The position numbers and the translations under genes are program-made. A model generated the notes under the pieces. That model was not told where the DNA came from, searched no databases, and saw nothing but the letters and a program-made list of their open reading frames with translations. A DNA stretch of 64,000 bases from Tubiluchus corallicola (taxonomy: Eukaryota; Animalia; Priapulida): assembly GCA_030141605.1 (NCBI GenBank), contig JAQGDQ010000060.1:496001-560000 (forward strand), read 5' to 3'. Position 1 is the first letter of the stretch; each line of letters opens with the position of its first letter. Below are positions 37,810 through 63,611 of this stretch, piece by piece.

Positions 37810-37820
37810 CTAGTAACGAC
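37810..37820 (-). CDS. TRA2: TRA2 last coding exon (RRY-stop)
   Basis: tttctag|GT CGT TAC TAG completes SYSP-R-R-Y*, the canonical Tra2 C-terminus. Confidence 0.85.
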
Positions 37821-40800
37821 CTAGAAATTAAGACAATTAATTGAATACAGATCAAACAACAAGCACTTTACTTACACTCCTATATAATGCTATATCCTAT
37901 CTAATACAGTCACACAGATATACCGAAAATTAACTGTAAGAAAATATATCCAATCAATATATGATTAGAATAACGAGTAGGATTATGCATTTCTGGGCAA
38001 AAAAAAATCGATTTTACGGATCATTATAAATTTGTCTTACTCACAAATTAAGCTTAATTTGGTTCAAAATAAGTACATACATCTGTTTTCTCCTGCAGTT
38101 ATAAGTAGATTAGGAGATAACTTTGGTATAAAACCAAACGAAAGTGACTACATTTACTTTAGTGAAACAAACAATTTACAAAACAAACCTAATGCAGGCA
38201 GCCTAAAAAATGATTAACAAATTATTAATTAGTTAAAGTCCTTTTCTTGTTCAAAATCATTTGCACACAACATAACTGTTTAAAAGCTTGACAAAAAACA
38301 GAAAAAAAATGATTGTGATGCAGTGAAACAGCAGCTCTTTTGTACATTGGTGCAATAGTACATTACTAATTTGCTACCACTGTCCAAAATGGAAAGCAAA
38401 AATTTTAACAAACGAAATCAATGGGACGCAACAGAACCATCTTCCGTTCCCTTCTTTGCAAGTGAGTCTTAAAATGACAACACATTTCAATTCTTCTGAA
38501 GGCATTTCCTTCAATTGTTTTAGCTTAAATCAGGAACGCTTCTGCCAATATTGCTCGTCCCATGCCAGCTTTTGCAGGATATGTCAGCAAGACAGAATTT
38601 GGTACAATTTTAACTTGGTAACAGCACTACACCGCATAGCATTCAGGAGCTGGCTGGTAAAAATATTCTTAATATTTTACAGACTTTTGCAAGCTAAAGG
38701 TTAAACACAAAATACTTTATGAAGTTTCAATTTTACCCAAAATCAGAAAGAAAATGGTCTAACTAAGATTTCGTGATGCTTTTTCTTAGTAGCTTATATA
38801 TAAGAGGAAATCTGATGCCAAGGTGTCATTTTCGAAGAGTCTGCAACTTCATTTTGCTCGTTAAATGACACCAGGAATTCCAGCGCTTGAGTTTGGTTAT
38901 CACGTGTTATATTCTGCCGTGTAGAATTGTTTACAAACTCAATGTCACAGAAACTTTAGTGCGATTTCGCTAAGTTTCACAAGCCAAACCGAACAGAATG
39001 TTTTGGGAAAAATGCAACTTCGAGGCTTGATTTCATTCGGAAGGAAGCCGTGAAATTTAATAAAATTAGTGTCAGATTTTAAATTATGGTTAGCTCTTTT
39101 TATTAAAGAAAATTTGTTTTTATGCAAAATCTGACCTTAATGACAGAGTGTAAAACAGCTGAATAACAGTTTGAGCACAAACCATAAGCCCCTGACAGAA
39201 TAAACTCAATATGAACAATGAAGCAATCAATTGATTCTTCGGTTTGTAACATGCGTAGCGTTCCATATGTAAACAATGCAAGAACTGTGGACCATTACTC
39301 CCGAAAACGACTTTACCTCGACGCCAAACTGTCTCAGCTTCCCGGTCGTCAAGTTGCAGGTAACACGTAAAGAATTTTCCATAAATTTTTAGCCCAGGAT
39401 CTCTGGCCTAATTCTCGGCAATGAAAGGCATCAGCAAAATTTCAGGGGAGCGAAAGCAATTAGTGAATCGCAAAATTCACTGGAAAATGACTTATACCCT
39501 CATACTTACGTGGAGAATAAGAACGGGATCTGGAACGAGAGTAGCGCGGAGAATAACGTGGAGAGTAACGCCGGCTGCGATTGTACCCATATCCGCCGCC
39601 CCCTCCGTATCCACCGGAATATCCGTATCCATAATTACGACGTGGTGGCCTGAAACACGAACACATCAAATTATTAGAGACATTAATGAAATGACATCTG
39701 ACAACACTGGAACACAGAGACGGCATCCGAACACGGAGACGGCGTCCGAACACGGAGACGACATCCCAACACAGAGACGCGTCTGAACACAGAGAGGACG
39801 TACGAACAGAGAGAGACGACATCCGAACACAGAGACAACAGAACCATTGCAGCAAAAACAGAAAAAAACTTCAGTCATTGGTAGAAACTCAAAATAATTG
39901 GTCCTTATACCTGGCGGGTCTTCCCATGTACACTCCAGGAGTTGGCGTATGTGCCCGGTTGGTAATGGAAAAATCTACTCTGATACGCCGTCCGTCTATT
40001 TCCATGCCGGCTGCTTTTTCCTTTGCCTGTCAAAATAAAAGCACATATGAAACTCATAGATAGGGGCCAATGCAACAAAAACTAAACATAATAATCTTAA
40101 TCTCTATCACGAGACAAATAATTATTTTTATAAAATAATACAAGATTAAAACACGGCTGAAAGTATTAGCAAAGCTTAGTCTGATCAGGTAATCAAATTT
40201 CTTCTACAACTTTTTCACCAGGTGTAATCAATAGGACGTACTGCAATCTTCATTAAATCAACTAGTTAATGTTGTATCAAAAAAAATTTTATACACCAAT
40301 AACTATTAGCAGTCACAAGTACAGCATAATAACTTAAATTAAATACCAAGTATGGTTCTCTAACTGGTTTTCATCCCCTTCACTTTGCCAGACTGGACTG
40401 GTGTTTAACTGGATAGATGTAACACTAATTTGCAATATAGCAAACATACTGCAAAGGAGCATAGTGTTGTTTGGTACTACACTGTTTGCTGTAACCAGTC
40501 TGGGTGAATAGAGAGTCGGTGTGGAAAAACAGCCTCATACAAACTGATTTTAAAAGTGCAGTTTTTACGTATTTTTGGGGTATTTAATGAGTCTGTAGAA
40601 CTTAAGCACACGAAAAAAGGATAACCCGATGGCATGACTTTTGTTAATGATACACACTGGCCTGGCTGGATGCAGATGACATATGGAATACCTGTACCCG
40701 GTGTTGCAGGAAATCATGGCAAAACACCAAGAAGAGTTCAATGGCGAGGCAGTTGATGAAGAAACTTCTAGCTCAGAGTTTGAGCCCGCTGAAGAAGATT

Positions 40801-43800
40801 TGATTGCAAAGCAAAACATTCTTGCCATTTGACTTTGATTAAATTAAACTTCGTATTGGAACGAAAAAAAATTCTATTAAATTAGTCTGTGTGAAAAATC
40901 GATCTAACACAGACTAATTCTGATAGTGCATGTTGATAAGTTGGTTTCAAAATTAGTCTCAAAACATAATAATTACATTAAACAGTTTAGTTCTGCTGTA
41001 TCCCTAATTACAATCATTTACCACTATGTGTTAAGCAAAGATTATGAGTACAGTGTTCCCTCGCTACTTCGCGGTTCGTTTATCGTGGACTCGCTGTTTC
41101 GCGACTTTTCAAAAATATTAATGTAAAATATTTATCGCGCTATTTTCGCTGTTTCGCAGGTTTTTGCAGTACTCCGTCTAAAGTATTTTTGCACATGCGC
41201 AGTACGTATTGTACAGTACTGTATACATTTGATGAATTTTGCATAAAAAATCACAAAATGTATAAAAATATATCAAAAATATTAATTCTAACATTAAAAG
41301 AATATCATAAATCATAAAAAATTACCATTTATAGTAAATAGTGTATTTATTCAGCGGATGAATACACACCAAAAACGAAATGTAGTACTTGTGCCCTAAA
41401 ATAAGTATAGCGTCCCTACTTATCGTGGGTGGGCCTAGGACGGAATACCCACGATAAGTGAAGGAACACTGTATTACAAAACATTGGCTGGCTCTTAACT
41501 AAAAATCTACTTCAATTATGTAAAGGTCTAGCATATCAGCTTTATTTACTCTATTTCATCATGTGGCAAAAAGGTACTTACCTCCATCGCGTCATTTGTG
41601 TCTTCGAAATGGACAAATGCAAATCCTCTAGACTGACCAGACTAAAACAGTAAAACATTCATGATAATGCACAGTTGCACATGTTTAGTTCATTGCTTCT
41701 ATCAATAGCAGTGCACAAAGTATGTAAATATATATATACTTCTCTTAAGCTCTGCAGACGTTAAATTTTGTAACCGGGAATGTTTAGTCAGTTAACTGCT
41801 AGTTAAACTCCATTTGAAAATTGTCTAGCTGCGTTTTTAGTTATAAATTTCACAAGTTTTCAAAAATTGTCAAACATTTTAACATAGGTATGACAGGCTC
41901 CCCCCACCATCCCCTCTCTGCCTCTCTCTCTCGCTCGCTCTGTCTGTCTCTCTCTCTCTGTCTGCCTCTTTCTCTCTCTGTCCGTCTGTCTCTCTCTCTA
42001 CCTCCCTCCCTCCCTCTCTCTCTTCCTCCCTCCTTCCCCCTCTCTCTCTCTACCTCCCTCCCTCCCTCTCTCTCTTCCTCCCTCCTACCCTCTCTCTCTC
42101 TCTCCTTCCTCTCTATAATGCAAAAAATTAGTGCTGTAATGGGAAATCATATGGGAATGGCAATTACTACAAACACGTCAACAGGATAGTACAGTAGTAT
42201 ATAGTAGTACGTCACAGTTCATCAACATTGAAAAGCAATGAATCAAGACTGTAGTAAAATGATCACAAGACGTGACCAAATTTTGCTTTGGCAGTACTCT
42301 ATAAACTACTCACTCTGTGGTCATATATCACATTAATTTCATCAATAGGTCCATAGCGGCCGAAGATCTCTCTCAGATCCCTTTCTTCTGTGTAAAGTGA
42401 CAATCCAAAAATTCCAAGGCAACGACTCACTTCCGGATTTTCCTATAAAGAAAAAAACAAATAACTGTTTAAGCCATGGGAATTTTTACAATTTTTAAAA
42501 AGGCATTTATAAGATAGATAGATAGATTATTGACATATGGCCAACAGGGCCAATCAAAACAATAATGAACATGTCATACAATGGATAGATAGTTTATTGA
42601 CATATGGCCAACAGTGTCAATCAAAACAATAATAAACATTTCATGCAATAGATTACATACAAGTTCAGATAAATTTTTCCACTGCACTTTCTATTACAGT
42701 GTTTTGTGCTTGCATCACACAAAACAGTTTTTCATTTTCAGTTAAAGCATTAAAAGTAGGATCATACTGAGAAACTGTGTTCAACATAAAGTTATGTGCA
42801 ACATTATGTCTTGAGTAGTACAATAAAAAATGGCATTCATCTTCAACAACATTGCAGACACCACAAACATGATTTTCACATGGAATAGGTGGTCATACAT
42901 GTCTAGCAGTTTCAACAGCCAAACGAGGAGCACTAATTCTAAATTTTGTCAAGGCCCCGTTCTATCTTCAATATTCCTAACATTTCCTAATTAAGCTTTT
43001 TAACATGGCATACAAACTAAAACTACCTGGCCATTACATTGCGTCAACATCACTCAGGTACTTCCACTCAGAAAAAACATTTCTTAATTAAGCTAATTTC
43101 CTTGCAGTTTAATTCAACAAACTTCGGATACTTCCAGAATAGAGAGCAACCAGACATACAACAATGTTATTTTTCATATCCCATTTTCATGTCCGATCAA
43201 AAGTAAACATTTTAACTCCAGTAATATTCGTAAGCATTTCTGATAATTAAGTAACAGATTAAAAACTTAATTAACGGTGGGCGAGCCCAACTACTGATGA
43301 CATCACAAACTAACATAATTTTCAACAGCAAAAATATTTCATGAGCGTGTTGCACACGTTTGCAAAAGCAAAAATTGAAGTACAGTGCTAGTGTAAGATA
43401 TTCCGTGTGTTGTACTAAAACTGGGCAAGTTTTAAGATAAAAATTGAAATTTCAAATTTGCTGCTGTGCTCACCATAAGCTGTCGAACATGTGTAGTTCA
43501 TCACAAACTAACACATCTGAATTAAGTGGTACACCATCTGCGTTTTTGCAACACGTTTCCGAAATGCAGGCGCTAGTGTCTGTCTAACTAGCGAATGGCG
43601 AAATGCATGTAATGGCAAAGTTGCGTTTGTGTGTTAATATTTCTTTCACGGAAGTCATTTTCGAAAAAAATAGTATGTTTCCTTTCAATATTTTAAAGAG
43701 TAGATTGCTTTGAGCTACGGTTTAAGATTGGGTCCGATTTTGATTTAAAATTTTGTTTTTTATGCAATTCTGTACTCTCAAACAGCGATCCAGCATTCTG

Positions 43801-46800
43801 TGGCATGGCGAGTGCTAGATGTGAGGGCAAACTGGGGCATGGCGAGTGCTAGATGTGAGGGCAAACTGGGGCATGGCGAGTGCTAGATGTGAGGGCAAAC
43901 TGGGGCATGGCGAATGCTAGCTGTGAGGGCAAACTGGGGCATGACGAGTGCTAGATGTGAGGGCAAACTGGGGCATGACGAGTGCTAGATGTGAGGGCAA
44001 AATGGGGCATGGCGAGTGCTAGCTGTGAGGGCAAACAGGGGCATGGCGAGTGCTAGATGTGAGGGCAAACTGGGGCATGACGAGTGCTAGATGTGAGGGC
44101 AAACTGGGGCATGACGAGTGCTAGATGTGAGGGCAAACTGGGGCATGACAAGTGCTAGATGTGAGGGCAAACTGGGGCATGGCGAGTGCTAGATGTGAGG
44201 GCAAACTGGGGCATGACGAGTGCTAGATGTGAGGGCAAACTGGGGCATGACGAGTGCTAGATGTGAGGGCAAACTGGGGCATGACGAGTGCTAGATGTGA
44301 GGGCAAAATGGGGCATGGCGAGTGCTAGATGTGAGGGCAAACTGGGGCATGACGAGTGCTAGATGTGAGGGCAAACTGGGGCATGGCGAGTGCTAGCTGT
44401 GAGGGCAAACTGGGGCATGGCAAGTGCTAGATGTGAGGGCAAACTGGAGCATGACGAGTGCTAGATTGGGCAGACACTGTGACCACTCAGTTATTTTTCA
44501 TTACACTAAATTGAACTGTAACATGAATAATATGTTTTTACAACTATCTTCTAGACAGAACGTGTTTTCGGTATATTAAATTAGACAACGATAATATGCA
44601 AAATATTCTAGCTTCAATAAAAGTTCAATAGATGGCACTACCAGTACAAAATTGTAAGTGCTTTATGATTTATTGTGTAAATTATCAGGTGACAAGAATA
44701 AAAGAAAAATACTGGCAATTTTAACATTAAAGCTGTTCAGTACTCACTCTGTCTCCAACATGTCGACGGCGCTGAGACATCGGTGAATGACTGTGACTGC
44801 GACTACGGCTACGATAGTCTCGATTGCTGCGTCCATAATGTGGCGATCGATCACGGGAACGGCTGTACGCAAACACAAAACACAAGCAATATAAAAAATA
44901 CTCATAACGTACAGACAGTCAGTTGAAGACAAACTACATTTAAATATAGTGTAAATTTATTGTTTAGTAAATATAGTGTTTATTGGCTACGGTTACAGCA
45001 GTCTTGGTTGCTGCGTTCATAATGTGGCGATCAATTAAGGGAACGGCTGTACGCAAACAAAACAAACAATATAAAAAATACTCATAACGTACAGACAATC
45101 AGTTGAAATGAAACTGCTTTTAAATATAATTATTCAATAGGTTTTTTTTACCTCGAATATCTAAAAATTTCGAGTAAGTTATGAAAACTGGAATACCCAT
45201 AACGCTTTATCTATTTTTATCTATTAAAAATAGTTAAGGCGCACAAGTATTATTGTTCACACAATTGTTATTATTAGTTAATTGTTGTAAACATTTAACT
45301 TAAACTATTTGCTGATGTTGGAAGTGCGTACGTTAATCATTAGGATAGAAAGGATTTGAAGTAGCAAAAACAGCAAAGTCTACCAACACTGCAGTTCTTT
45401 TTATATGTTTATCTAATTTCGCTAAAAGAATTGCCATTTTCACATATTTTGCTTTGTTTAATAAAAGTGTAGAACATGCAAAGTGTGCAGGTACTTTTGA
45501 GACACCCTGTACATAAGACTTCTATTTTCCTGCGTTCACATTTTCAGTTTGCACACACACAGCAGGCGTGGTTTTCATAAAGAAGCAATCAGGGTTTTTA
45601 AAAGCACAAGAAAACCCTCAACTTACATCAAGCTTAAAAAATTCATCTTGAAATTTTATACCACTTACATACTGCCATTTTGCATACAGGGCTCGTGTCA
45701 GCAGTAATGCTGTACAAAACATGTGAGTTTAAACTTCTGCAATGACCGTTAGGCGCAGCCATTTTAATGGTAGGTCATTTGAAAAAAATTTAGATAACAC
45801 TGAGTGAAGTTTGCAAAATTATCAGAGCAATCGTAGCACACACGTCACTAAGTAAAATTTTAAATTATTGTCCATAAGATTAAAAATACGTTTTTGGTTA
45901 CTGAGTGGTGCACCCTGGAGGGTGAGTCAGCGACACTTTACCAATTGGCACGAACATCTTAAATTGTTATTTCTAGTTACATAACTCTTTCCAGAATATA
46001 AGCAAAATGCAAAGCAATACAGATTTGCATGGACAGTTTTTTGGGACATCTCCTTTTTTCCCCAGATTTGCATTTGCGTAATTGACGTCATGTAACATCA
46101 TGTCATGGCGTCGTCGCAACAGTATTGCGGAAATTGCCATAAAGTAACATAATTTTTAAGGCTACTTCAGGCACCCCTTTTCTTGTCCTTTTAAATCAGC
46201 TGCTCATACAGTCCATTCTCAAACAGCATCAATTACCCAAAAAAGGTACAACCCTAGCAGACAAGGTGGTGACGTCAAATGCTGCCCATCGCCCCCCCCC
46301 CCCCCTTCGAGAGTATTCTTCCTCTACGCCAATCAGCAAACCAATTATCTCGAAGACAACACCAAATAAGGTGGCCACTATAAGATTCAAATTAGCAAAC
46401 CTTCTGATAATAAACCTCAACTTACCTGCCATGTAAGTCTTACAATTAATAGGATGACAAAAACGCATTTAGTGTCTTGTACTTATCTGGCTATCATAGA
46501 ATCTTATTTAATTACATAATGATGCCAGTGCCTGGCCAATCCTGGCAAAACTATTGCTGCTTTCAAAGCTCAAAGTGAAAATGGCATGTAAAGAGCAAAT
46601 AATAATAATAATAATAATAATAATAATCTTTTTATTTACACGCACAGTTATAATACAATTAATTTGGAAACAAAAATGTGAAGAAAGGGCAGCGAAAGAC
46701 CAATTGGTCATCTAGTCAGCTGCCCTTTGGTTAGTGCGAACATTTTTATAGGCGCTATGCTACAGTGTATTAGTGTTAGTACTGCTTATAATAAAAATTT

Positions 46801-49800
46801 AATTGTTACGAATGACATAAAATTGATATGCTTATAACGTGTTAGTACAATTCATACACAGTAATAATAAGTGCATAATAAAAAAATGAAACTGAAAAGC
46901 AAAAGGAACAAAAGAAAGTTAAGGATCAAAAATTTTTATTACTTGGTGACATCATACATAGTTTAATTGAATTTGGCTAAATACTGTCAATGAACACTAC
47001 ATGTATATGAGAAATGTCTAGAAATAGCACTACATTGGTTAAATTAGGAGCCAGTAAAAAAGAAGCAGTCTAATACACAACATATCATATCATAAATATT
47101 TTCCAGCAAGCTCTAGGATTATTTCTCCACAACCAAAAAAACTCCAAGTACACTTTACAGCAAGATTTGTTCAGTTAGACAATAATGAGACTATTGTATA
47201 AGAAAGCAGGTGATAGGATTGACGGAACTTCAGATCTTTGTACAAATGCAAGCACTAGGACCCTGGTTCAAAAATTTTTGCACTAATTTACATAAACCCT
47301 AGCATAAATGTAGTAAAAACCTTAGTCATTAAAGTTTAAGTGATGCATAGGAGACCATCACAAACAACACTACAAATCTACATGATCTTAACATTGTACA
47401 AAAACCACCCTAGCCTAGGTTTGTAAGTAAGCAAGAACAGTGTTAATCCTAAAGCACATTGAACACAATGATGTGGCGTAGGTCTAATGTATTCAACAAT
47501 GCATACTTATTGCTAATTTTAAAAATTTGTCTTACTGTTATGCTGACCTAGGTGACCCTATTTAAACGAAAACACGCACATTCAACTTGTGGTAATTATT
47601 GTGCTTAATTTTTAATTATACAAGGAACATCACGAACGTCATATTTAATGTCTTTACGCACTTAATTGTCATAGACCTTCGCAAAAATTTTAATGCACCC
47701 TATTTTTAAAAGTGGATTTGTCACCTAATTTCATCAATAAACTCATTATTATTATTATTACAGTGGAACCATATTCCTTTCGGTCACAAATGCGTCCTTT
47801 ATACTCACTGGGCTGACACCACCCACTGATCCCCCCCCCCATACCGACATTGAATGCGCAATATGAGAAATGTCTAGTCCCTATAGCAGAAATCAGCTGA
47901 ACATGCTACAGACCATCGTCCAGTAATTAACAACATTGAAAAAAAGAAACCCAGCATTCTACCGGCATAAGAATTGCGATGGCAGGCAGTTTTCCAGGAA
48001 ATTGACCAACCATTGACTATCCGATACTAATTATTAATCTCATATTAATAGTTTCACTTCAGTTTTTGCGGTCATCTCTGCAAAATGCCTAAACCAAGAC
48101 GTATAGCACAAAACTAACACTGTCATTGGATTCACAGACCTTGAAGACTGAACACTTAAATTTAAAATTCCATTTAAAATTAAGATATGAACCAAAGAGT
48201 AGTTACAGCAAATACAAGTGACGCCATTACTGCAATAAATGGCAGTGATGAAAAGCAAAATGCTGTAAAATTTTACAACGATCATGTAGCAGTATTGTCC
48301 AAAAAATGTAAAGGACTGAAAATGAAAAGCCACGGCGAGTAGCAGAGTGGAGAGTGCTGCTGTAAATATGATCTGAAGCACCAACTTTTTGCTCATGCCA
48401 TTTCGTTAAAGGAAAGGACAAGCCCTCTAAAAAGTTTAGCTTATTTCAATGTTTGCGAAAAATAATATGCCTTTGTAATAAAAGTGATATAAGCACTTCG
48501 TGTAATTAGTACAATTACTTTAAAGTCGTGATCATTTCGTATTACAACAAATGGGGCAGAACGAATTGTGGCCGTGAGTCGACGACTACCCGAATGTGGC
48601 AATTGTTAAAGTACCACATGGTAGTCTCATGCTGCAAGTTCAGACTGTGCACTCTCAAACACTTTCGGCACTGGATATTTGTACAGATCTTCCAAAAACA
48701 CTCTGCGGCACTTATCGTTCATTGCATGCCGTATAGACTTGCGACGCGACATGTCCTCCAACGTTCCCGGATACTCTATCTCTAGCTGTGCCAAAATGGC
48801 ATTGACTCGTGCAGGATCCAACTTGTTCTTCATGATCTGGCCCATTTTTGTGAGGGCCACCCCTCCCTTCAAGGTGCTTGTGCGAAGCTCCTCGCGGCTA
48901 AAAAGAAGCCCCATAAGTTTGAGCACAAAAATATTTGGAGAACCGCGAGATCGATCATATGCCGTATCATACTCCACTTTGGAAATTTCAAACTGATTAT
49001 CAGTTGTAGCACCTATTACTACAGTCTTATCGATGAGCATTCCATATTTTGGTTCACTTGGCACGAGAAATTCTGGCACGATGTTCTTATTGCGAAGACG
49101 ACAGAAGTTGGCAGAAAAATCTTGCACCATATTTGGGTCACTTTCTGTGGTTACAACACTTGACTGGTCGAAAAACTCAACTGGTTGTGATCCAGAAACC
49201 GGGACCTGCCGTTGCGACCAACAATCGTGACTTTCGATTTCAGATTTCATAGCCACTTGCCCCGAAGACCACTCTTCAACTGCCAAAACAGTATTTGAGT
49301 GTTTGTCCGACATAGACGTACCTTGACTAGATTCTGTTGAGTCTTGCAGCTGGTGACTAAGTTGATTCTCAGCTATAGCATGTTGCATCGAGGCTCTTGA
49401 TGACTGTGCCGTTACACTTGATTCTACAGTTTGTTCCGTTCCACTTTCAAGTTCACCATCACTTTCATCAATTTCTACAATTTCAGTTATGTAATTATTG
49501 ACATCAACCGTCTGGGACGTGCTGGAGTCGGCGGCATTAGATTTACGTTTCTCATTTGAAGATGTCGATGCAGCAGAATGTAAAATGGGGCTGTGGTTCG
49601 CAATGCGCTCAGCTGTGCGACGGCTTAAATATGCTCTAGCTGCGGCAAATCCTTCACACGTAGCCACAGGAACTGATAGCCGATCAAGTCCATTTGGTAA
49701 AGAATGCCGAGGACTTAGCGAAGCCAGCACACCTGTGGAATTTTCTACTCGTTCATAACCTGTCTTTGGTGATTTACAAAAGCCAGGGATCTTCTTCCTT

Positions 49801-52800
49801 AATAAAGTACTCAGCTCACGAATCTCTTTTAGCACAGTGACATTTTGCTGTTCCATTCTATCTAATCGTTTCTCTATTTCAGCTAATCGATCGCCCGACG
49901 GAGCCGACTGTGCCAACTGGGGAAGCTGTGATTGTAAAGTATGCAGTGACGGATGCGTCAAGAGGACTGTCAGAGCTTGCTGCAGCTGTTCATTACCAAG
50001 GTTACTAGACATTCTGGATGATCCGGATCTGTAACAAAGTAAAGATCCGTATAAGGAAAATGACATGAAGCATGGCAAATGAATGCACTAGCTTCATGAC
50101 AGAGTGCCACAACAGCAAAATTCTAAAACCTTGAAATTCAGTACTTTAGCTTTGCGTTGCCTTATCATGCAAAAGTGACTCTAGAAGTGAACATTTACAG
50201 CAAACTCTCACAAGCTCTTGCCACATGAGATCTTGGAAAACATACCAGACCAAACCAGGCACTACACCTGATAGATGATATAGTCATTCCAAGACCGTGA
50301 CTTAGTATATACCACTACGGAAAATGCGATATCTTTTAACTTGAAAATTGCAAAACCATTTGGAAAAACAATGTTGGAGAATTATCAATACTGAACTAGT
50401 AAAAAATCAGCTCCCACTGACATACACTTCAAATGAAAGGCTAGGCCCGTTTTACAGGTCTTCGTTAACAATACAAGAATAAAAAAACGAAACCTAATTC
50501 ACCTATGAGTAATGGCATTTGCATAGCACAAAGTTTGACCACATTCTGCTTAGACAAACTGACAGAATGTCAGTCTAGCAGGATGGCTAAAGCCGCAAAA
50601 TGCTTACATACAAATCAGTTTGCCATACAGACAGTTAAAAAAATGTGTCCACACAACTTTCACACAGGAAACATCCTGCTTTCTGCAGGAGAGAAACACT
50701 TGTCTATTATACTCACTACATCAAAACTGGAGGAATTCCTAATGGAAAAGCCAACTCTGGATCAACATTCATTGTATTTTAATGTACATTTAAAAATAGT
50801 ACCACATAATATACGCACTTAAAACGCCTTAAAAATGTAAAAGAAAATGCCGTTCACTCAGAAATTCAGCTATTCTAGCTAAGTAAGTCTTTGTGTTCAA
50901 AGTGTTTATGTCAAAATTAGTTATCGGATCAATCTCCCATAACTTTACATACAAAACTCATATAGTTTTAATCCACAGAAATATACCTCAAAATCTGTAC
51001 TATCACACACGATACAATTACAGATAAGCATGGAATTTTGCGAGCATACAGCAAGTGCTGTTCGAGTTACTCAGCTTTATAGACTTTTAATTTGTTAAAA
51101 TAATTATTCTCTTACTTTGTCGAGGTTAACTTACTAGCCGACTTGGCAATTACTGTATTATAATCAGTAACTGGTTTTTAGTACACTGTGGGCAACAGGA
51201 TTCATCAAAAAGAAAAAAGTTAATTTTCCACCTAAGGTTTTAGACCAGGGGTGTGCAAATTGCGGCCCGCCGAGAGAATTTGTGCGGCCCGCGAAGAGAT
51301 TTGTCAACCTAATGAAAGTGTGACCCGGTCGATTAATTGAGTGTATCCAGCTGAAGTCCGTGCCACGATCCCAAAGATAGTGCGGTTAGTTTTTTCTACT
51401 AGATCGGATGCCATTAACCCTTACAAGACGGTTGTAGCTTAATGTCACTGTACTACAACAGACTGTGTGATACACAGTACTAATATGCATTGTAATGAAA
51501 TTACCACTATCTGTCCTGAAAGTAGAAATATATGGTTTGTAATATAAATTTTAATAACTTCTAAAATAGTTTCTTGAGTGTAGTAGTAATGATGTACGCA
51601 GGTCGGATGCAAAAAAATCCTTATTAGGCCTTTCTGCATTTGGCTCCTTGATCAAACTGCCTGTGGCCCGCAGGAATTGCGGGAAAGTTTAATGTGACCT
51701 GGCTAGTCAGATAATTTGACCACTCCTGTTTTAGACTATTTGTAGCTGATATTACAAATCACAACTGCAAAAAGCTCCAGCAGGTGGCAGGATAACTCTT
51801 TATATTGCATGGTAGAGCGGATGACGTCATTTCTCGTTCAAGATGAACACGCTTGAGGTGATTGCAACTTTAAATTAATTTTACTAATTTACACAAGCAA
51901 TTTATCACAAATTCACTGCCGAAACTTTTTAACATTTTTCTCAAATATTAAAATGTCCCAAGAGATTTGTCTTTTGTTTTAAAGCAAAATGTATCAAAAA
52001 TTCACAAATATTTTCCAAAAATAACATGCTATTTGGCTTCAGTAAGGTCTATTTTGTTTGATAAGGAAAGCACACAATTCACTAGCCTACCTTGTTCGCT
52101 CAAGGATCTACTCGCAGGACTGCACCGGTTTACTGGTTTGGTAAACAAAACGTAATTTACAGACAGTGATGCAAACAATTCACTTCATTTTGAAAAGATT
52201 TAAATCAATAATCAGTATTAACTAACCTTCCAAGATTCTGTAAAGTGAAGTGAACAAAGCATTTGCATGCGAAAACTTCTCCGAGCTCCAGATATAAATT
52301 ATTAATAATATGCTAATCAAACTGTTGAGTGTGGTAAAAACAGCTCGATTAACTAGAATTAGGCCTAATTTGTAATCAAACATAAACAAGCAGACAAAAC
52401 TCACGTGGAATAGCAAATGTCAGTCACATGTAAGAAATGTATAAGGAAATTGTTTTCTCTGCCTTATCATTGTTGTGCAAGTGAAACGACAGTAGACTCT
52501 TACTATCCCTTATTTTGATGTGTTCTAAAGGAAATGATCAGTTTTCTCCTTAAAAGAAAAGCAGACGATTGTGTAAACATTAGTTCAGAATAAAGAATGC
52601 TCTAAAATATTGAAAACTACAATAGCTTTTTTTAATCAAAGCTTAGATTAAATAATAATTTCGTCGGATACTCAAATTGCGTTAAACTTTCAAAGCTACG
52701 CGTGGCTCAGTGTATCTACTAAGATTGGCAACGGCACCTTTTTGTCACATGCACGTGGCTGACAAATAGAAGGCGGTACCATGATAACCATGATCATGAA

Positions 52801-55800
52801 CTGAAGTGTTAGTTTCTGACGTCATATGACGTAGAGCCCATTTTCGTGACATCACGCGTCTAAACAGTACTATAAAACTTGACGTGTAAGGGAAGATGCC
52901 TGTTAATGCACAAACTGTGGTTAGTTTCGAACGTAAGCAATAGGTGTGTTCAGTTGCCGTCAATTAACTTTCTAAGCTAATTATTCAAATATAAGAAACA
53001 ATTGCTAACTTTTATAGGAAAGAAAACATATATTTTGCACAGTAAACTAAAATGAGATTGAGTATAAACAATCGTCCAGTTTTCCTTTAAAATCGCGTCT
53101 TGAGATGTACGATAATGCCTATGAGATGCTTCAGGCTATCTACCTCTAGCGTACATCCCAGCAGATGGAGGGACATACGTGTAATTCTAGTATAGCAGAG
53201 CTCTCACAGACATACTTAAATGCGCAGCCTGTGTGTTAGGCTTCATCTATGTGCGTATTTATTAATTTATCAATTAATGTTCACATAATAACTCTCATTT
53301 ATCTTTTATGATTTACTGTGTGCAACTAACTTTATGTGAACTTAGAAGCAAAACTGAATAGGCACAAAATAAAACTTGAAAAGCAGCAAAAGAGCCACCT
53401 TCTGGAAACTAACATCAGCGCCGAATGCATAAACATATATAGAGTGTTCAAACGGCATGCGACTAATACCAAATGCAACTACACTTCTTACACAAGATAC
53501 TAAGAAAAAAGATTCACAGCATGTCACTCAGTGAAAGCTACAATAACAGCATCATGTCTACTTTTATGCCCAAGCGTTTTTTCCCTTCATCCAGAAAAAT
53601 TAAAATTTCTTACGGGCAAGCTTTCCCAACTAAAAAAAAGAATATGTGCTCAACAAAATGTAAGAAACGATCTACAATTATAAAAAAATAGAAGTTCTAT
53701 CTCACACGAGTTAAATTATCTGTTTTTCCTGACCACTTTACCAAATGAAAAATTTATCAAGTTTTAACTCTACAGTATTAACTTTTATCAGGCACTTTCT
53801 TGCTCTAACTGACACATTTTAAACAGCGACACGCCTGAATTACTCTTATACTCATGCATAGAAAACCAAATTAAACAACAATGAACTTATCAGAAATAGT
53901 TTGGGCTGTTATGCCATGGCTACTTAGAGAAGAACAATGCAAAAGAAATCTCGTATCACTCATACTGCAGATTACATATTGCATCTGAGCCAATAGAAAG
54001 TGTAGAATTTTTCCTAATATGAACAAAACAGCTTCACAGAATGTTTAACTACGTTAACAACTAATAACATTAACAGATAAGCAATTCTCAAACGTAAATT
54101 GGAAGGCATGTAAATTCACACCATAAACCCAAAATGGATTGTTAAGTCGTCGAAACAAACAACTTAAGCTTACTAATTATTATAGTCTAGATTGTAGTTT
54201 ACAATTACAAAATCATCAATCAAAATTAAATAAATTAACATATCTTGTTCCTACTAATAATAATTACTAATTGTGTCACATGACAGAACCCTACAGTAAA
54301 GGCAACTATAACCAAAAAGTATTTAAGTGTACTTTGTACTTTAGTTCATAATAAACACATTATTTAGCATAACACTAATCGAATTTGTTGTAACTATAAT
54401 CACAGTTACTGAAAACGCCAAAGACCCAAATGTTTCCGTCATTCTTAACTTATTCATCACGTAATTTCCGACACCGCTGTAGAATCTTAACTTTCGGCAA
54501 CGACAACTTGGCAAGCCAATGAACATACCAGCAACAAAGAACAAATGGAGGACGTTACTTTCGCTTGCTAAATTCACCCAGATAATTATTGTTAACCTTT
54601 GGTATCGGAAACTTGTGCATGTCCTCCAGAAATATTCGGCGGCATTTGTTGTTCATTGCGCGTCGAATCGCTTTGCGACACGGTACCTCATTCATTGTCC
54701 CGGGGTACTCTATCTCCAGCTGCGCCAAGATGGCATTCACTTTAGCTGGCTCCAACTTATTCTTCATGATCTGTCCCATTTTAGTAAGAGCCACGCCACC
54801 TTTGACAGTGCTCGTCCGAAGCTCCTCGCGTTTGAAAACAAAGTCCATTAACTTCAGCACGAATACGTTAGCATTTCCTCGAGTCTGGTCATAAACACGA
54901 TCGTAGTCTGCTTTCGGCACTGGCAAGGGGTTATTTGTTGTGGCACCAATAAATACTGTATCATCAATTAGTATGCCATACTTCGGTTCATCAGCTTTGG
55001 ATTTGGAGTTGTTAAAGAAAACTTCTACAGGTGTGTCCTCAAAAGAGTCTTCGATCTCTATACCAACAGCATTACTAAGCTGTTTAAGTAATCGAGACCC
55101 TGACAAAATCACGGGGCCTCTGGAACTGTCAGCATCAGCTGCGCGATAACCTTTACCTTTTCCTCGTGAAGTACTTGTACTATTTCCGTTACGCTTGACA
55201 CCGGAAACAGAATTGCTTTGGCTTTGTGTTTTAGCAGATGCCAAGTGCTGATTCTTTTTCCTCTTTTTCGTTGAAAAAATAGAACGTACTCGACGTTTCT
55301 TTCCTTTCCGGATTTTTATGTGAGTTGATTCCATGTTTGGCACACCTGTTTCTGCAGCAGTATCCTCTTCTTGATCAACAGTCAGTTCTACTTCAGCAGC
55401 AGTGAAAGTTTTAAGGGTCTGCTGAGCTAATGAATCAGAAACAACTGGCATATCTTTAGACGTCAAGTCTTTACTTTTCTTGAATGACGATGCAGATGAG
55501 ATATTTGGCACTTTATTTGATTCAAATTCTAGTTGATTATTTATATTGCACTCAGCTGTTTCACCGCCTGGTTCTTCTATGATAGGCTCAGTTTCTATCT
55601 CTGGTTGTTCAATTATGGGATTACTTTCATCAACCTTACCTGTGCAAGGTTCCACGGCATGTCCTTCAACATCGACGTTTCTTCCAGAACTGTTTTCATC
55701 AATGTTGACAACACAAGGAGAAGTTGCAACATTCTCCAAAGTAGCTAGATTCGACACTACATCACGGAACTCTTCCGACTCGCGTCGTCGAGTGGACTTT

Positions 55801-58800
55801 GCGGTTACCGTGTAACACGTCGTTAAAAACGTACTCAACGCGCGAAGTTCTTTCACCATTGCTACAGTTTGCTGCTCTACCCTGTCTAAACGCTTCTCAA
55901 TTGACGTAAGAAGGTCAGGAGACAAGGGGGTAACTTGTGGCGACTGGAAAGACATTGGAGTTGTTACAGCATCCGCTGTTTGTTGAAACTGTTCACTATC
56001 GGGGCAATTAGAATGTTCGGAGAGTCGGGATCTGCAAGAGATGAAAGATCCATATAAGGATTTTGAGCATCACTCCTCACAAGCTTAGCACTATTTTAGC
56101 CATGAAACTGCTTAGTTGGAGACGTAATTCAAAACTTCACGGGTTCCAATAATTATTAAAGCTGGCTGTCCAAGGTGCTACTTGACAATGTACTGTTCAT
56201 TCATTTTTTATGTGAAATACTGGAACACAGCAATAGCTGGGTCAAGAAAGTTAAAATTTTTATTAAGAAACAACAACAAGTATGACCACAAATGTTATAA
56301 TGTATTTAGAATCAATTTAAGTCAAAAACATAACAATGTTTGCACAAAAGCACACTTATTGTCTAGTACAAGAAACAAATCATTATTTTAATCTTATATA
56401 ATGAATAGAGCTAGCGACTATCTGGAAAGAACCTACTATGTGAATAGTTTTTATATTTAAAAGCTACTTATATACAGTAAAAAATACCTTAACACAAATT
56501 ACACAATAATACATAAAAATATATTTATGCTGTTTTGCAAGCTTAGGCAAAAGAATCATTTTACTGCATTTAAAAGGAAATTCGACTTTGACAGAGCTGA
56601 ATGCCTCGACACTGTCTGTCAGTTTAATGCACCATTTCCAAAACAAGCTTACTTAATTCAGTCGCTGTCTAGCATACATTACCTTAGTAAAGATAACACT
56701 TTGATGAAAAAATAAATATTTAACATTATAAAAATTGAGGCTAAAAATCTACTGCACAGAATTCGAAACAATATCACTGGAAAATTAATATTAACTTATT
56801 TATACATATAAAAGTCCATTTCCATAAAACATTTCAACATCACTAATTTTCTATGCATAAAAAGTGACTAATGACTACATTGCAAATGACTCTGGCAACA
56901 ATACAGCAATAACATTTCTCTAAATGTAGACAAGGGAATGTGCATGTCAGACAAGCTGGCAGAAAAAATTATACAAATGCTGTTCACAAAACCAATTATC
57001 TAGCTACTGGAAGTCGAGAGTGGAAATTAAACCCATCATAGAACCTGATAGCAAAATAACAAAGTTTAGTTTCAACAAACAAAAGTCTATGTGCGACGCG
57101 GGTTAATTCTGACAACAAAAGGCTTGCTTGGGTCGCATTGCTATATGTACTCTTTTATAGCATCATCTCCATACCCTGCTACTTAAAATGGTTTGCGACT
57201 ACCTGTTGGAGTGCTTCACTTTTCTGGGCAGAAAAACCAATACCTGTTCTGCACAGCTAAGATGAAAATTTTCACAAGTGCAGATGTTAGTTATTTTTCT
57301 GGCCAGTGGATAAGTTCTAGCGTGCTTGTAGTTGACGCATCTGGCTGGCACATGATTTTTGATGCAAATTCTTTACCATGGAAAGATGAGTTAAGTGTCG
57401 TTTGGCAGCAAAAAGCACAGTGTTGCTGTTGTATGGCCTGTTTTCCTCAGCTTCATTACTATTACATGGTTTACAGAGCTGGTCGAGCCACAACAAGTGT
57501 GTTGTCGTTCCATTTCAGTCAACTGTTTGTACGTTGCCGTTGCGGTCTACACGAATGCTGCTTAACTGAACCACTTGTTGTCGTTCCATTTCAGTCAACT
57601 GTTTGTACATTGCCATTGCGGTCTACACGAACTGGACCACTGTTATGTACAGACGCTATGCAATTAACCAAAGATTACGCCAAAATGAAAAATCTAATGA
57701 GTTATCAATATTTCGGTTCTAAATGCAGAGAGAATTTTTGCATCTCTGCAGAGACTTTAATAAACTGTTAATAAGTTGTAAATCTATGTGCATCATATGG
57801 TTTCTACACACAGATCTACAATTAAATCATCTGTCTAACTTAATCATATTTTTAGTGCAAGAACCACAAGTGCTGGCGAGCAGCTAAGAAACAAATGAAT
57901 ATAACAGCAGAAAAAGGAGCACTTGGGCACTTGACGTAACTGCAAACTCCACAAGTGAAGTTGTGCAGTGTCCAATAAATCAGATCCAGAAAGGAATCAG
58001 ATTTTTTTTTCTGATTTTCCTGAGCCGAAATGAAACAAAGCCAAAACTATAATAATCCTAACGGAAACATATCCAAAAGTTCACTAATCCTAACCGAAAC
58101 AAAACCAAAACTGCACTTAACTTAAGTCTACAAATGAAACTAAGCAGACACTAATTGCAATTGTAATAATCTTATTGTATAAAATGATCTGAGAATCTGA
58201 GAGACAATTTTTTGCGAGATATTGCACTGTTTGGCAAGGCAGAGGGATGCTAGCATTTTGTGAAGAGGGGTGATGTAGAAGAGAACCACAGAGAAAAACT
58301 GCTAGCCAAGCCAAGTGCCCAATAAATCATTACAGCATGTGAACTGATCACTACAAAAACAAGCAAATGTTATTTCACATCTCAATTTAACATAGTTTCT
58401 TACTGGTGCTGTGAAGATGTAATAAAACGCGGCGGGCATTTACGCCAGGTAGGTAAACATTGAAACATCAACTAAACAGCTAGCTGGTCAAGTTCCTAGT
58501 CAGAAACCCAAAGAGACACTTAAGTGTTTTACCTGCATATCAATACACACATCTAGGCGTGGCTACAAAAAGTCATTGTTAAATTTCATTCATGTGACGC
58601 GGTATATGGTCTTACAATAGAGGGTAGTACACGACCTTTCACTAGGGGGCACTAAAATAACAATGTAGTAGTACAGAACAATTTATTACATGGATAGCGC
58701 AAATCTATCATGTCCTCAGAATTTAGCGTGAAAACCTCAAGTATCTTGCTTGTGCCATCAATGGCAATAATCACAATGAAATGGTCAGGGTAAGATTACT

Positions 58801-61231
58801 CAAAATATTGTTTGAATAAGATCAGCTGAATGTTAATACAGCATAAGGTAAGAATAAAAGGAATATACAAATCCTAGTAAGAGAGAAGGCAGTTTGGGGT
58901 TCTTCTTCAAAACGTTGTTACGTAGGTCTGGAAACCCTTGACCCAAACCAAATTGAATCCCAGTCAAATTTCGTGCCTTAATCTGAGACACATTCACTTT
59001 GGCCCAAGCACTGTCAGCTGTTCCATAAAAGCAATTTTTAGCCAATAACAAGTAACTCAAGAAGAAATAAAGTGATATTACATTAGTCACGGTAATATTG
59101 AAGAAAGGAACAAGATTGATTTATAAACAAAGTAAGATAACAAACGATCTCCAAACTAAACAGCTAAATGGCATGAATAAACTTAATGAGCATTATTACG
59201 TTTATAATCGCACCAAAAATCTATAAATGCACAGAAAATAGTTGCAAATTTATGCTTCATTACTACAAATGCAAGCAATTCACCTAACAAGAACTTGATG
59301 CAAACTTTTCGAACAAATAACTACTAATGTGACTAATTATTCCCTCACTTCACTCAAAAAACATCAAACTAAACCTAAAATACTTAAAAACAATCAACAG
59401 GTGCAATTATAAAAAGTCACACTATAAATTAAATAGTTTCACATCTCAAACACTTAGCCTAATTCTCCAGGTAACTAACCCAACTTTTCATTAGCTAAGA
59501 AACTGCCAAGCTTATCTAGAATTCGGCTAAATAACAGAATTATCTCAAATCATATTTTGCACAGCTATCATGTTGATATAGAATTTTCACTTACAAGTAG
59601 TCAAGTACAGCGAGGAGGCGTGACTACCGTGTAATAATTGTAATTAGGTATTTCTTGCATTTTTAACCTATGACTGACTACAGTTTATAAAACATACAAA
59701 AACGTGTGCTTACCTTCGTGAGCTGAAAAAAAGAAAAAAGACAACATCAGCATCAAAATACATTCAGTAAGTAACAACAAAAAATATGGCTGTGCAAATT
59801 AAAGGAAAGCAATAGTCAAATTTAGAACATAGCTCAAAATAATGTATGGACTAAAGTACAGACAAGAAAAATATTGTCTTTTTAACAAGCACAGCTTTAC
59901 AAAAATGCACTACATGAAAAATAAGCAATGTATTGGATCCATCAGAAGGACTCGACCCAGTCATGACATAGACCCAGGATGACAACTAAGCCACACGAGT
60001 GCATACAGCTTGAAATCATGAATTCAAAAGCACAAAACTTATGCTGTTGCGAATTTTACATGGAAATGTCAAGTTTCACCTTTCACTCTTATATAAATGT
60101 ATGAAATGTTAATAAACGTTATGGGAGTTCACGAAAATCGAGAAACTTTTGGAATTTAGCCTATCAGTGACCTAACTGTTAGACGTGCTCGGGGTAGCTA
60201 ATTAAATTTCTAACTTACCGGTATTATTTAACTATCAGATACATGTGTGTGGAAAACGTCCGGAATTCGACTATCATGCTTTTTCAGTTTATTCACACAT
60301 TCTGAATCTATATCTATTGAGGTTCACTTGATGCAAGCTCATCGCTCTACGTTATTTTTGATGGAAATAATCAACAAAAAACTGAGGCCTGTGCTGTGCA
60401 GACTAAAAAACAATCTTAATAGAACTGCCATTGAAATTTGCCATTGTTTTTGTCTGATTCCTACACAAACACCTTAGCAATAGCAAGAAAGAGTGGCCCG
60501 TTAATGGCTTTTCAAGATAATAATCTGGAGCTGATAACGAAAGTAACTGCAATAAAATGGCCGCTCACAGGAAGGAGTTTAAAAATATGAGTCTTAATTT
60601 TTAGCCAGTAAATGAGAGAATATTTGATGTTAACCGGACATTTGATGCAATCAACTTAAAGGCTAACCTTGACATTGCCGATTTACGGACGGTTAAATTA
60701 ATTTGCATGTACACATTTCGTAATAGCAGTGTTCTCTCGCTACTTCGCACTTCGTTTATCGCGGACATTTTTATGAACATTTAAGTAAAGTTTTTTAAAA
60801 GGTACATGTACAGTATGGGAAAAGGTTATTAATGTATAAGAGTGTGGGGAGGGTTAATAAGGGCTTAAAATAATGTATAACTACTAAGATAAGTATAGTG
60901 TCCCTACTTCGCTGATATTCACTTATCGTGGGTGGGCCTGGAACGGAACACCCACTTAAGTGAGGAAACACTGTATTACAGGTAAAAATTGTATATTTTA
61001 TATCACATATTTCAGGCATAGCCTGAAAAATCATTGCACTTTCCTTTAAATAATATTAAGACATCCAGCTGCAAAAATTATTAAAGAAGCAAGGATAACC
61101 AACATAAAAAAATGATAAATTTTACGTTCCTCTCTAATAACGCAGATACGTACTAGTATCTAGACTTGCGTCCTCTAGAACGGGAACGGGAACGGCTGTA
61201 ACGTGACCGACGTGGCGTTCTCGATCTGCTT
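37810..61231 (-). CDS. TRA2: Transformer-2 homolog (RS-RRM-RS splicing factor), 5'-partial
   Basis: Exons on -: 61154-61231, microexon 59714-59722, 44748-44862, 42314-42442, 41582-41641, 39911-40026, 39510-39649, 37810-37820. All are GT-AG with consistent phases. Diagnostic motifs: [40 protein letters not shown]1 [50 protein letters not shown]. The start codon was not found in the window. Confidence 0.93.
39510..39649 (-). CDS. TRA2: TRA2 exon, Gly/Tyr linker and RS2
   Basis: cag|[46 protein letters not shown]|gtaagt. Confidence 0.92.
39700..39840. repeat. Degenerate ~19-22-bp tandem repeat in a short TRA2 intron
   Basis: Recurring GAACAC(A/G)GAGACG(G/A)C(A/G)TCC. Confidence 0.75.
39911..40026 (-). 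CDS. TRA2: TRA2 exon, end of RRM
   Basis: cag|[38 protein letters not shown](R)|gtataa. Confidence 0.95.
41051..41471. mobile_element. Tigger-like MITE, family C
   Basis: TA|CAGTGTTCCCTCGCTACTTCGCGG...AAGTGAAGGAACACTG|TA. A shorter copy lies at 60727-60973. Confidence 0.8.
41582..41641 (-). CDS. TRA2: TRA2 exon, RNP1
   Basis: tag|[20 protein letters not shown]|gtaagt. Confidence 0.95.
41910..42113. repeat. CT-rich low-complexity tract (GA-rich on the TRA2 sense strand)
   Basis: Mosaic of (CT)n and (CCCT)n. Confidence 0.9.
42314..42442 (-). CDS. TRA2: TRA2 exon, RRM start (RNP2)
   Basis: tag|[43 protein letters not shown]|gtgagt. Confidence 0.95.
42512..42975 (-). mobile_element. LINE 3' end with C-terminal zinc-finger remnant and (TCTA)n tail
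   Basis: The - strand reads [17 protein letters not shown]...[15 protein letters not shown]. The tail region 42512-42640 is tandemly duplicated. Confidence 0.7.
43802..44465. repeat. Minisatellite, 34-bp unit, about 19.5 copies, inside a probable TIR element (about 43575-44480)
   Basis: Unit GCATG(G/A)CGAGTGCTAGATGTGAGGGCAAACTGGG. The flanks AGTGTCTGTCTAA and TTGGGCAGACACT form an imperfect inverted pair. Confidence 0.93.
44748..44862 (-). CDS. TRA2: TRA2 exon, end of RS1
   Basis: cag|[38 protein letters not shown]|gtgagt. Confidence 0.95.
44985..45130 (-). repeat. Tandem duplicate of the TRA2 exon acceptor and first ~60 exon nt, with an in-frame stop
   Basis: Matches about 44805-44950. 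The acceptor GCGTACAG is intact (AG at 45047-45048) and is followed by C CGT TCC CTT AAT TGA. Confidence 0.85.
45603..46190. mobile_element. Kolobok-like family K copy
   Basis: AGCACAAGAAAA...TTTTCTTGTCCT with TTAA flanks; collinear with 14137-14801. Confidence 0.75.
48627..50028 (-). CDS. BEN-domain protein B (coiled coil + C-terminal BEN); single large exon, possibly an alternative last exon of TRA2
   Basis: Open frame 48627-50078. Coil [32 protein letters not shown] motifs [22 protein letters not shown]...[10 protein letters not shown]...[10 protein letters not shown]. Acceptor TTACTTTGTTACAG has its AG at 50029-50030, phase 2; an in-frame ATG follows a few codons later. Confidence 0.88.
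51246..51728. mobile_element. hAT-type MITE (inverted copy of 2167-2653)
   Basis: CAGGGGTGTGCAAATT start and a decayed right TIR, with flanks GTTTAGAC/TTTTAGAC. The interior is nearly identical to the reverse complement of 2167-2653. Confidence 0.9.
54555..56031 (-). CDS. BEN-domain protein A (coiled coil + basic NLS + C-terminal BEN); single large exon, possibly an alternative last exon of TRA2
   Basis: ORF 54555-55955 stays open up to the acceptor TTCATCTCTTGCAG (AG at 56032-56033, phase 2). Coil [29 protein letters not shown]; NLS-like [18 protein letters not shown]; BEN motifs [22 protein letters not shown]...[10 protein letters not shown]...[10 protein letters not shown]. Confidence 0.88.
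57500..57631. repeat. Short tandem duplication (~76-bp period)
   Basis: TGTTGTCGTTCCATTTCAGTCAACTGTTTGTAC...TTGCGGTCTACACGAA occurs twice. Confidence 0.85.
59714..59722 (-). CDS. TRA2: TRA2 9-nt microexon
   Basis: Long pyrimidine tract TCTTTTTTCTTTTTTTCAG|CTCACGAAG|GTAAGC. It is frame-preserving and adds Ser-Arg to RS1. Confidence 0.75.
60727..60973. mobile_element. Tigger-like MITE, family C, short copy
   Basis: CAGTGTTCTCTCGCTACTTCGC...AAGTGAGGAAACACTG|TA. Confidence 0.75.
61154..61231 (-). CDS. TRA2: TRA2 RS1 exon
   Basis: tgtgtag|[28 protein letters not shown]|gtacgt; phase 2 at both ends. Confidence 0.9.
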
Positions 61232-61781
61232 CTACACATGAAAAACAACAAAATAGAACCGATCAGTAAGTGAAGCTTAAAAATTAAAAAAGAAGACTTT
61301 ACAAAAGTAAAACCAGCAACCGCATAAAACGATGAAAGGTTTCTGAAAACAGAAAGTCCAAATGAGAGTTTCACTAATCACAGAACGATAAGTAAGCCAA
61401 GCCCATGAAACTAATGAAGACAAAATACGTTGACAAATTTATGCAAATAAGTTTAGCTAGATGCACAGCCTTTTAATTAAGACTTTCAGCTTCATTTCAC
61501 ATAAGATATTATTTTCCACACAAATTTATGAATTAACATCATTAAACTACAGAAATTATTAGCTTGTGATCTCCGCACTAAAAGCTAGTTACATAAACAT
61601 GCGCTGCACTCAAGTTATTGTTCATTGGCGTGCGATTAATCAATTAATTAAACAAACCACACACTACAATCATTGATAAAAAAATTAGTAATACTAACAA
61701 CATCGTTATTAACCATATGCACAATGCACGTGTCAAACTTTCATACTTACTACAAAGACACAAGAATCTGTGAAAGCTTTA

Positions 61782-63557: not shown

Positions 63558-63611
63558 CTGGAATATGTGAAGTCCTCATCAACATCATCATCATATGACA
63601 GTGATATAGAT
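63558..63611 (-). CDS. Candidate 54-nt TRA2 cassette exon (acidic)
   Basis: tttgtttcag|A SISLSYDDDVDEDFTYS AG|gtcgtt. Phase 2/2 fits the RS1 exon, but the donor is weak. Confidence 0.35.

Follow-up and report, generated by a model that had tools for sequence, protein, structure and literature searches.

The TRA2 locus and its 14.85-kb intron

The minus strand of the 64-kb window (the whole stretch of Tubiluchus corallicola DNA that was analysed) carries a TRA2 gene of nine exons, running from 63611 to 37810. All nine exons have AG/GT ends, and they join into 236 open codons with an RS1-RRM-linker-RS2 layout, ending in a stop. The exon at 42442-42314 matches human TRA2B RRM structures at E 3e-15, with the next family at 1e-5 or weaker; the gene thus combines a single RRM most like that of TRA2B with the RS1-RRM-linker-RS2 layout in one frame, as expected of the TRA2 family. 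No start codon was found within the window, and it probably lies beyond it. The exons, in the order of transcription, are:

63558..63611, minus strand: candidate upstream TRA2 coding exon, acidic then RS, with CAG/GT ends and a weak phase-2 donor, in frame with the downstream exons
61154..61231, minus strand: RS1 exon, 26 codons, ending in TA
59714..59722, minus strand: 9-nt microexon with a U2-type GTAAGC donor
44748..44862, minus strand: exon 3, second half of RS1, canonical partner of the 59714 donor
42314..42442, minus strand: first part of the RRM, with the TRA2B structure match
41582..41641, minus strand: middle of the RRM, open in the joined frame
39911..40026, minus strand: end of the RRM and linker, open in the joined frame
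39510..39649, minus strand: glycine-rich/RS2 exon, open in the joined frame
37810..37820, minus strand: final coding codons and stop, open in the joined frame

The end of exon 3 at 44748 is a small correction to an earlier reading. The acceptor of the microexon contains 18 pyrimidines in 19 positions, the strongest tract in the TRA2 gene, and its donor opens a phase-2 intron of 14.85 kb (59713-44863). Near the far end of this intron, the exon-3 acceptor and the first 60 nt of the exon are partly duplicated in tandem at 44987-45128 (minus strand), 180–184 nt upstream of the true one. The duplicate is recent and 84–87% identical; its acceptor lies at 45046, its frame closes after four codons, and an AATAAA is present at 44984. 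It may act as a decoy acceptor or a poison end. Tandem repeats were also noted by eye, with about 20 copies of a unit of about 34 nt in the intron after exon 3 (about 43800-44460) and three copies of a unit of about 93 nt upstream (about 62250-62530). Rfam gave no matches in 36000-64000. Elsewhere in the window, a single long ORF on the plus strand (7029-8108) encodes a pentraxin domain (Pfam 1.3e-19) and a likely signal peptide.

The intron 59713-44863 holds two intact frames on the same strand, BEN1 and BEN2, which end at 54555 and 48627. Read from their CAG acceptors, at 56031 for BEN1 and 50028 for BEN2, they span 491 and 466 codons and keep the frame of the 59714 donor:

54555..56031, minus strand: BEN1 terminal coding exon, 491 codons, an intact ORF with a Pfam BEN match and an orthologue (P0001)
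about 55919-55791, minus strand: BEN1 coiled coil, followed by an acidic disordered middle
about 55316-55251, minus strand: BEN1 basic NLS-like patch
about 54989-54594, minus strand: BEN1 BEN domain
48627..50028, minus strand: BEN2 terminal coding exon, 466 codons, an intact ORF with a fold model and a homologue (P0002)
about 49886-49788, minus strand: BEN2 coiled coil, preceded by an N-terminal helix and followed by a disordered middle
about 49055-48660, minus strand: BEN2 BEN domain

BEN1 and BEN2 are 47% identical over 64 residues of the coiled-coil segment and 70% identical over the C-terminal 132 residues, with unrelated middles. The coiled-coil segment forms one long helix in a full-length model, which is poor (pLDDT 40) and was used for helix positions only. 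The first-pass annotation had described two long same-strand ORFs in this intron, each with a coiled coil and a C-terminal BEN domain, and the frames, the profile search and the fold bear it out. Re-joining 59714 to 56031 and 50028 reproduced its junction residues (YSR-RSRLSEH and YSR-RSGSSRM), and the joined frames place both BEN acceptors in phase 2, like exon 3 (44862), as it had stated. Because BEN1 and BEN2 are paralogues, their phase match counts as one observation, with a prior chance of 1/3.

Two sequencing runs were compared with the locus. Run X1 behaves as DNA: all 30 bins are covered, among them those of introns and repeats. High-copy interspersed repeats lie at 45092-46867, 51012-53379 and 60484-61075, where the contig depth of X1 reaches hundreds to thousands; one such block sits between BEN1 and BEN2. 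Over the BEN exons, beside repeats at thousands, the depth is 2.5–9 and single-copy-like. Run X2, which we guess to be RNA (13 Mb of contigs), covers TRA2 exon 3 only, in a contig ending where the exon does. The two BEN exons and the obligatory TRA2 exon 61154-61231 have no match in X2 at 90% or 80% likeness, and the run is therefore uninformative on BEN expression. Although X2 carries the same species label, 7 of 116 positions differ in the TRA2 exon (44749-44864; about 94% identity), which suggests a cryptic species or very high polymorphism.

Fold, age and constraint of BEN1 and BEN2

Pfam PF10523 matched BEN1 and BEN2 at E 2e-4 and 5e-4 (21.8 and 20.8 bits), just under the curated cut-off of 23.2, which several of their profile relatives exceed; the BEN assignment was then confirmed by the family profile and the fold. 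Searched against the PDB, a profile of 40 relatives returned 13 matches, all 13 of them BEN chains and the best being BANP (3.5e-7). The fold was modelled for BEN2 (pLDDT 94), to which the BEN1 domain is 70% identical. Foldseek placed BANP, Insensitive (Insv), NACC1, Bsg25A and BEND6 on top with probability 1.0, and the TM-score to the query was 0.57–0.63 for BEN structures (BANP, Insensitive, Elba1, BEND6 and NACC1 in the comparison); bracovirus and poxvirus BEN proteins gave weaker structural matches. BEN factors bind DNA, according to PMC11472053, and the modelled fold predicts sequence-specific DNA binding for BEN1 and BEN2. Like BEN1 and BEN2, the BEN-solo factors BANP, Insensitive, Elba1, BEND6 and NACC1 carry the fold at the C-terminus, although they are independent genes (PMC11472053, PMC4281564); unlike them, the BEN1/BEN2 subfamily is modelled with an inserted beta-hairpin and an N-terminal beta extension.

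Between the BEN domains of the two exons, pS is 0.74, pN 0.17 and dN/dS about 0.06, with 11 of 41 four-fold sites identical; the duplication is therefore old and the protein has been under constraint. Judged by their sequence, BEN1 and BEN2 are working genes or exons, not debris. The first 25 codons of the two exons are weakly constrained (dN/dS about 0.7). Two close homologues were found: P0001, an orthologue of BEN1 at 71% identity from another data set, and P0002. BEN1, BEN2, P0001 and P0002 group together (99) in a quick tree, apart from the other BEN fusion cases described below, although the tree is poorly resolved (36 of 67 inner branches open). P0001 and P0002 are each predicted with a start of their own, that of P0002 lying 28 residues upstream of the junction-like position. 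Two scans of metagenome contigs for relatives found none (0 of 596 and 0 of 96 pattern matches).

Acceptors, start codons and candidate 3′ ends of the BEN exons

The 28 nt preceding the AGs of BEN1 and BEN2 are identical at 21 positions in register, including a block of 16/17 with a branch-point-like core:

56032..56061, minus strand: BEN1 acceptor with the branch-point-like motif common to BEN2 (16/17 nt in register)
50029..50058, minus strand: BEN2 acceptor with the same branch-point-like motif (16/17 nt in register)

Upstream of this stretch, identity falls to about 3 in 10. The 36 pairs among TRA2's own nine acceptors average 10.9 identical positions with a maximum of 15, and none of 4797 pairs drawn from 99 pyrimidine-rich YAG intron sites attains 21/28 or 16/17. 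The acceptors had been called clean pyrimidine-CAG sites; CAG acceptors are indeed present at 56031 and 50028, but their pyrimidine content (13/19 and 12/19) is average, like that of most TRA2 acceptors, and ranks 31 and 92 among 460 YAG sites.

A blastn comparison of the sequences ahead of the two BEN exons (3.7 kb and 4.5 kb) gave three weak matches (E 0.17–0.59), the best of which is the shared acceptor 17-mer, so that no leader exon or promoter is seen duplicated with the BEN exons. From the two acceptor sequences we infer that both BEN exons are spliced onto something upstream.

Other readings of the shared motif were considered and set aside. Although it translates alike in both copies, it is not taken as coding, since its silent positions are identical whereas those of the BEN domain are saturated; moreover, a stop lies in frame in BEN1, 13 codons upstream of the junction (a 1-nt assembly error there is possible, only the best-supported indels having been listed), and the nearby ATG is out of frame. 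A Dscam1-type docking/selector cluster was rejected, the best complements (14–15 of 18 with G-U pairs) being weak and mostly different for the two motifs. So was a U12-type intron: 50029-64000 holds no exact U12 donor, the motif differs from TCCTTRAY and the TRA2 donor is U2-type.

The first in-frame AUG of BEN1 is codon 26 (55955); the 25 codons ahead of it are open and align to BEN2 without gaps, and the chance of such an open stretch is 17–30%. This AUG is preceded by an out-of-frame AUG (55972) and comes after a helix common to BEN2 and P0002. BEN2 has an in-frame AUG at codon 6 (50012), 16 nt behind the acceptor, and another 13 codons before the acceptor. In P0002, no Met occurs for 79 residues after the acceptor-like position, until inside the coiled coil, while the first helix is conserved; the chance of this Met-free run is 0.3–2% if the stretch is non-coding, the junction being read from protein only. 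The spacing from the junction to the first helix differs by whole codons among BEN1, BEN2 and P0002.

Both of the poly(A) signals named in the first-pass annotation are present on the minus strand, and a U-rich tract follows the second only:

53258..53263, minus strand: AATAAA, candidate BEN1 poly(A) signal, 1.3 kb past the stop, with no U-rich tract behind it
46935..46940, minus strand: AATAAA, candidate BEN2 poly(A) site, 1.7 kb past the stop and followed by a U-rich tract

Many ATTAAA motifs also lie behind the BEN stops inside the intron. The most pyrimidine-rich acceptor-like site of the intron, at 46891-46930 (minus strand), has a perfect TCCTTAAC branch motif, lies directly behind the AATAAA at 46940 and opens 13 codons in phase 2; it may serve as the U-rich element for BEN2 polyadenylation or form a short terminal exon, the third in the intron.

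BEN1 and BEN2 as candidate last exons of TRA2

We give a probability of roughly 70% to the reading in which BEN1 and BEN2 are alternative last exons of TRA2, yielding RS-BEN fusion proteins through predicted junctions. The nearest coding donor of the right phase is TRA2's. Such fusion isoforms had already been proposed as candidates, and the proposal is strengthened by acceptors conserved against saturated synonymous sites, by the lack of a duplicated upstream exon or promoter in the compared sequence, by coding-like sequence between the acceptor and the AUG in BEN1 and P0002, and by sea-star gene models with an RS/BEN swap; the junction itself stays a prediction. Under the fusion reading, the microexon donor at 59714 would face a three-way choice between BEN1, BEN2 and the normal exon 3, and intronic polyadenylation would follow BEN1 or BEN2. 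Since the RS1 exon 61154-61231 ends in TA, joining it directly to either BEN exon would create a TAA stop; the reading frame therefore stays open only where the donor comes from the microexon or from the upstream candidate exon (63558), and microexon inclusion could gate the fusion. In the product, at least 47 residues of RS arm would precede a coiled coil and a predicted DNA-binding BEN domain. By analogy with BANP, Insensitive and NACC1, such a protein would act on chromatin in the nucleus, recognising specific sequences and probably forming oligomers, and the RS arm would add nuclear/speckle targeting or SR-protein contacts. As BEN transcripts would terminate ahead of the RRM, every one of them would be made at the expense of a TRA2 message. 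The first-pass interpretation that the locus could swap its RRM for BEN is partly supported, but the exchange would go further, with half of RS1, the RRM and RS2 all removed. One BEN exon would have been trapped in the intron long ago and then duplicated in tandem.

Three other explanations compete with fusion to TRA2. It is unlikely, though by no means negligible, that BEN1 and BEN2 are nested same-strand genes translated from an internal AUG, fed by an unseen short leader exon with its own promoter in the intron, or by spliced-leader trans-splicing at the conserved acceptor. A conserved acceptor would be expected equally of a spliced-leader or own-leader gene, and many relatives resemble stand-alone coiled-coil and BEN proteins; the BEN2 AUGs, one of them only 16 nt behind the acceptor, and the own starts of P0001 and P0002 are counterpoints to the fusion that make stand-alone translation possible. 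However, no homologous leader or promoter precedes the two copies, although old non-coding sequence may have diverged past detection; BEN1 would meet its out-of-frame AUG first and lose the conserved first helix, and P0002 offers no Met after the acceptor-like position until inside the coiled coil.

We consider it quite improbable that TRA2 only lends its promoter, with TRA2-BEN splicing (microexon skipping, for example, leading to a stop) followed by translation of BEN from an internal AUG, so that the main effect would be to lower TRA2 in the manner of a poison exon. The immediate stop on joining from the 61154 donor, with the BEN2 AUG 16 nt later, would suit this arrangement, as would the control of vertebrate TRA2B by a poison exon near its 5′ end (PMC12469348), but BEN1 has no matching AUG and the acceptor-to-first-helix spacing keeps frame in BEN1, BEN2 and P0002. 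That the frames are silent remnants, whether mobile-element or retrocopy debris or pseudogenes sitting in the intron, is very improbable: several high-copy repeats do occupy the intron by X1 depth, but frames intact over 466–491 codons, a dN/dS of about 0.06, an orthologue 71% identical elsewhere, the single-copy-like X1 depth over the BEN exons and the lack of terminal inverted repeats of note all speak against it. Regarding a transposon origin of the BEN exons, Pfam revealed no transposase domain and no clear terminal repeats were seen; old ends could have decayed.

Returning to alternative last exons, a profile search with BEN relatives gave 70 hits. Names were sought for 20 of 68 distant hits, chosen mostly by length, and 11 clusters were named. 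A host-type N-terminus stands ahead of BEN in 5 of these 11; another five look stand-alone, and one is an amphioxus hit. An RS-rich N-terminus combined with BEN occurs in gene models of two sea stars, Asterias amurensis isoform X3 and A. rubens isoform X4. The A. amurensis isoforms X1 and X3 are identical over an RS-rich N-terminus (281 of 281 residues) and then diverge, X1 ending in a SMAP domain and X3 in a coiled coil and BEN; a true swap was tested for this case only, on database gene models. From its architecture we take this RS-rich SMAP-domain gene to be RSRC2-like. In a hagfish (Myxine) protein named 'microspherule protein 1 isoform X1', the similarity to its namesake stops where MCRS_N begins, and the C-terminus is BEN; the identity of this protein (P0045) as MCRS1 rests on the name in the source and a weak Pfam edge match (E 0.046), with no PDB match. 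Further models join BEN to a NAP/SET-like domain in Priapulus, to Tudor/MBT in the crinoid Anneissia (isoform X2) and to BTB in Mytilus (isoform X8), and the amphioxus hit is labelled isoform X35 and has no Pfam hit. The BEN-ended isoforms of these animals (sea stars, P0058/P0076/P0077; hagfish, P0045/P0075; Priapulus, P0054; crinoid, P0043; mussel, P0057; amphioxus, P0033) have unrelated host N-termini or high isoform numbers, which suggests that capture of a BEN last exon is recurrent across them. The BEN domains of the Asterias and hagfish fusion models are not the closest kin of BEN1 and BEN2 in the poorly resolved tree, a placement consistent with, though no proof of, independent captures. 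Neither the 70 profile hits nor the two hits of the homologue search included a protein that begins with TRA2-like RS sequence and continues into this BEN type, and a search with the N-terminal fragment gave none on BEN among 781 candidates. Besides these cases, P0007, P0012, P0019-P0021, P0024, P0025, P0035, P0052 and P0062 share a similar-looking short N-terminal domain before a BEN-like end. The named members of this multi-member family are from echinoderms or hemichordates and have no confident N-terminal Pfam hit; it might be a mobile source of BEN exons.

Compared with the Asterias gene models, in which an RS-rich N-terminus is likewise continued by the normal end or by a coiled coil and BEN, the TRA2 locus has another host, another BEN lineage, two BEN ends instead of one and a shorter shared part (281 residues in Asterias). 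No paper describing the Asterias RS-rich SMAP/BEN isoforms was found in the literature searched. In Drosophila, mod(mdg4) combines a shared BTB N-terminus with many alternative ends and uses trans-splicing. As in the first-pass comparison with this gene, one end is BEN, that of isoform C (PMC4281564); both loci would pair a common N-terminus with alternative DNA-binding modules at the C-terminus, BEN among them. Unlike the BTB chromatin domain of mod(mdg4), the shared part here belongs to a splicing factor, being its RS arm, and the default continuation binds RNA; both BEN exons lie on the sense strand, so trans-splicing is unneeded. In CSB-PGBD3, a piggyBac element in intron 5 of ERCC6 serves as an alternative 3′ terminal exon, an 'exon trap' (PMC2268245). 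Both cases have a large ORF exon in a host intron, preceded by a conserved 3′ splice site and matching the frame of the host N-terminal exons. The CSB-PGBD3 exon also has a flanking poly(A) signal, for which the TRA2 intron offers the candidate AATAAA motifs. The cargo here is a coiled coil and BEN instead of a transposase, in two tandem copies with no transposon ends found and a predicted junction. The TRA2B poison exon (PMC12469348) similarly sits in the 5′ part of TRA2 as an alternative exon and draws transcripts away from the full-length form, but it is non-coding and triggers decay, whereas the BEN exons are long, conserved and coding.

The class of mechanism is already known from CSB-PGBD3 and mod(mdg4), and a wider pattern is plausible. 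No report of TRA2-BEN, RS-BEN or RSRC2-BEN was found in the searched literature, which did not extend to subscription journals and supplements, whose domain-architecture tables may list such fusions. The arrangement of BEN exons in the TRA2 intron is real and conserved, and probably unreported. A bolder view, which we hold tentatively, as possible rather than probable, is that BEN exons are a recurrent, unreported exon trap, having repeatedly become alternative last exons of housekeeping nuclear genes in invertebrate and jawless lineages (TRA2, RSRC2-like, MCRS1, SET-like), and that here a tandem pair and a gating 9-nt microexon would let TRA2 make either an RNA binder or one of two DNA binders with RS arms, the latter tethering the SR machinery to chosen genomic sites, with TRA2 turned down. 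Annotation can readily overlook BEN last exons or separate them from the host gene. Should the junctions be real, two lineage-specific chromatin factors would come from the gene of a conserved splicing regulator, and the RS arm on a DNA-binding domain would directly link recognition of DNA sequence to recruitment of SR proteins. Together, the sea-star and hagfish models suggest a general, overlooked route by which animals gain DNA-binding proteins.
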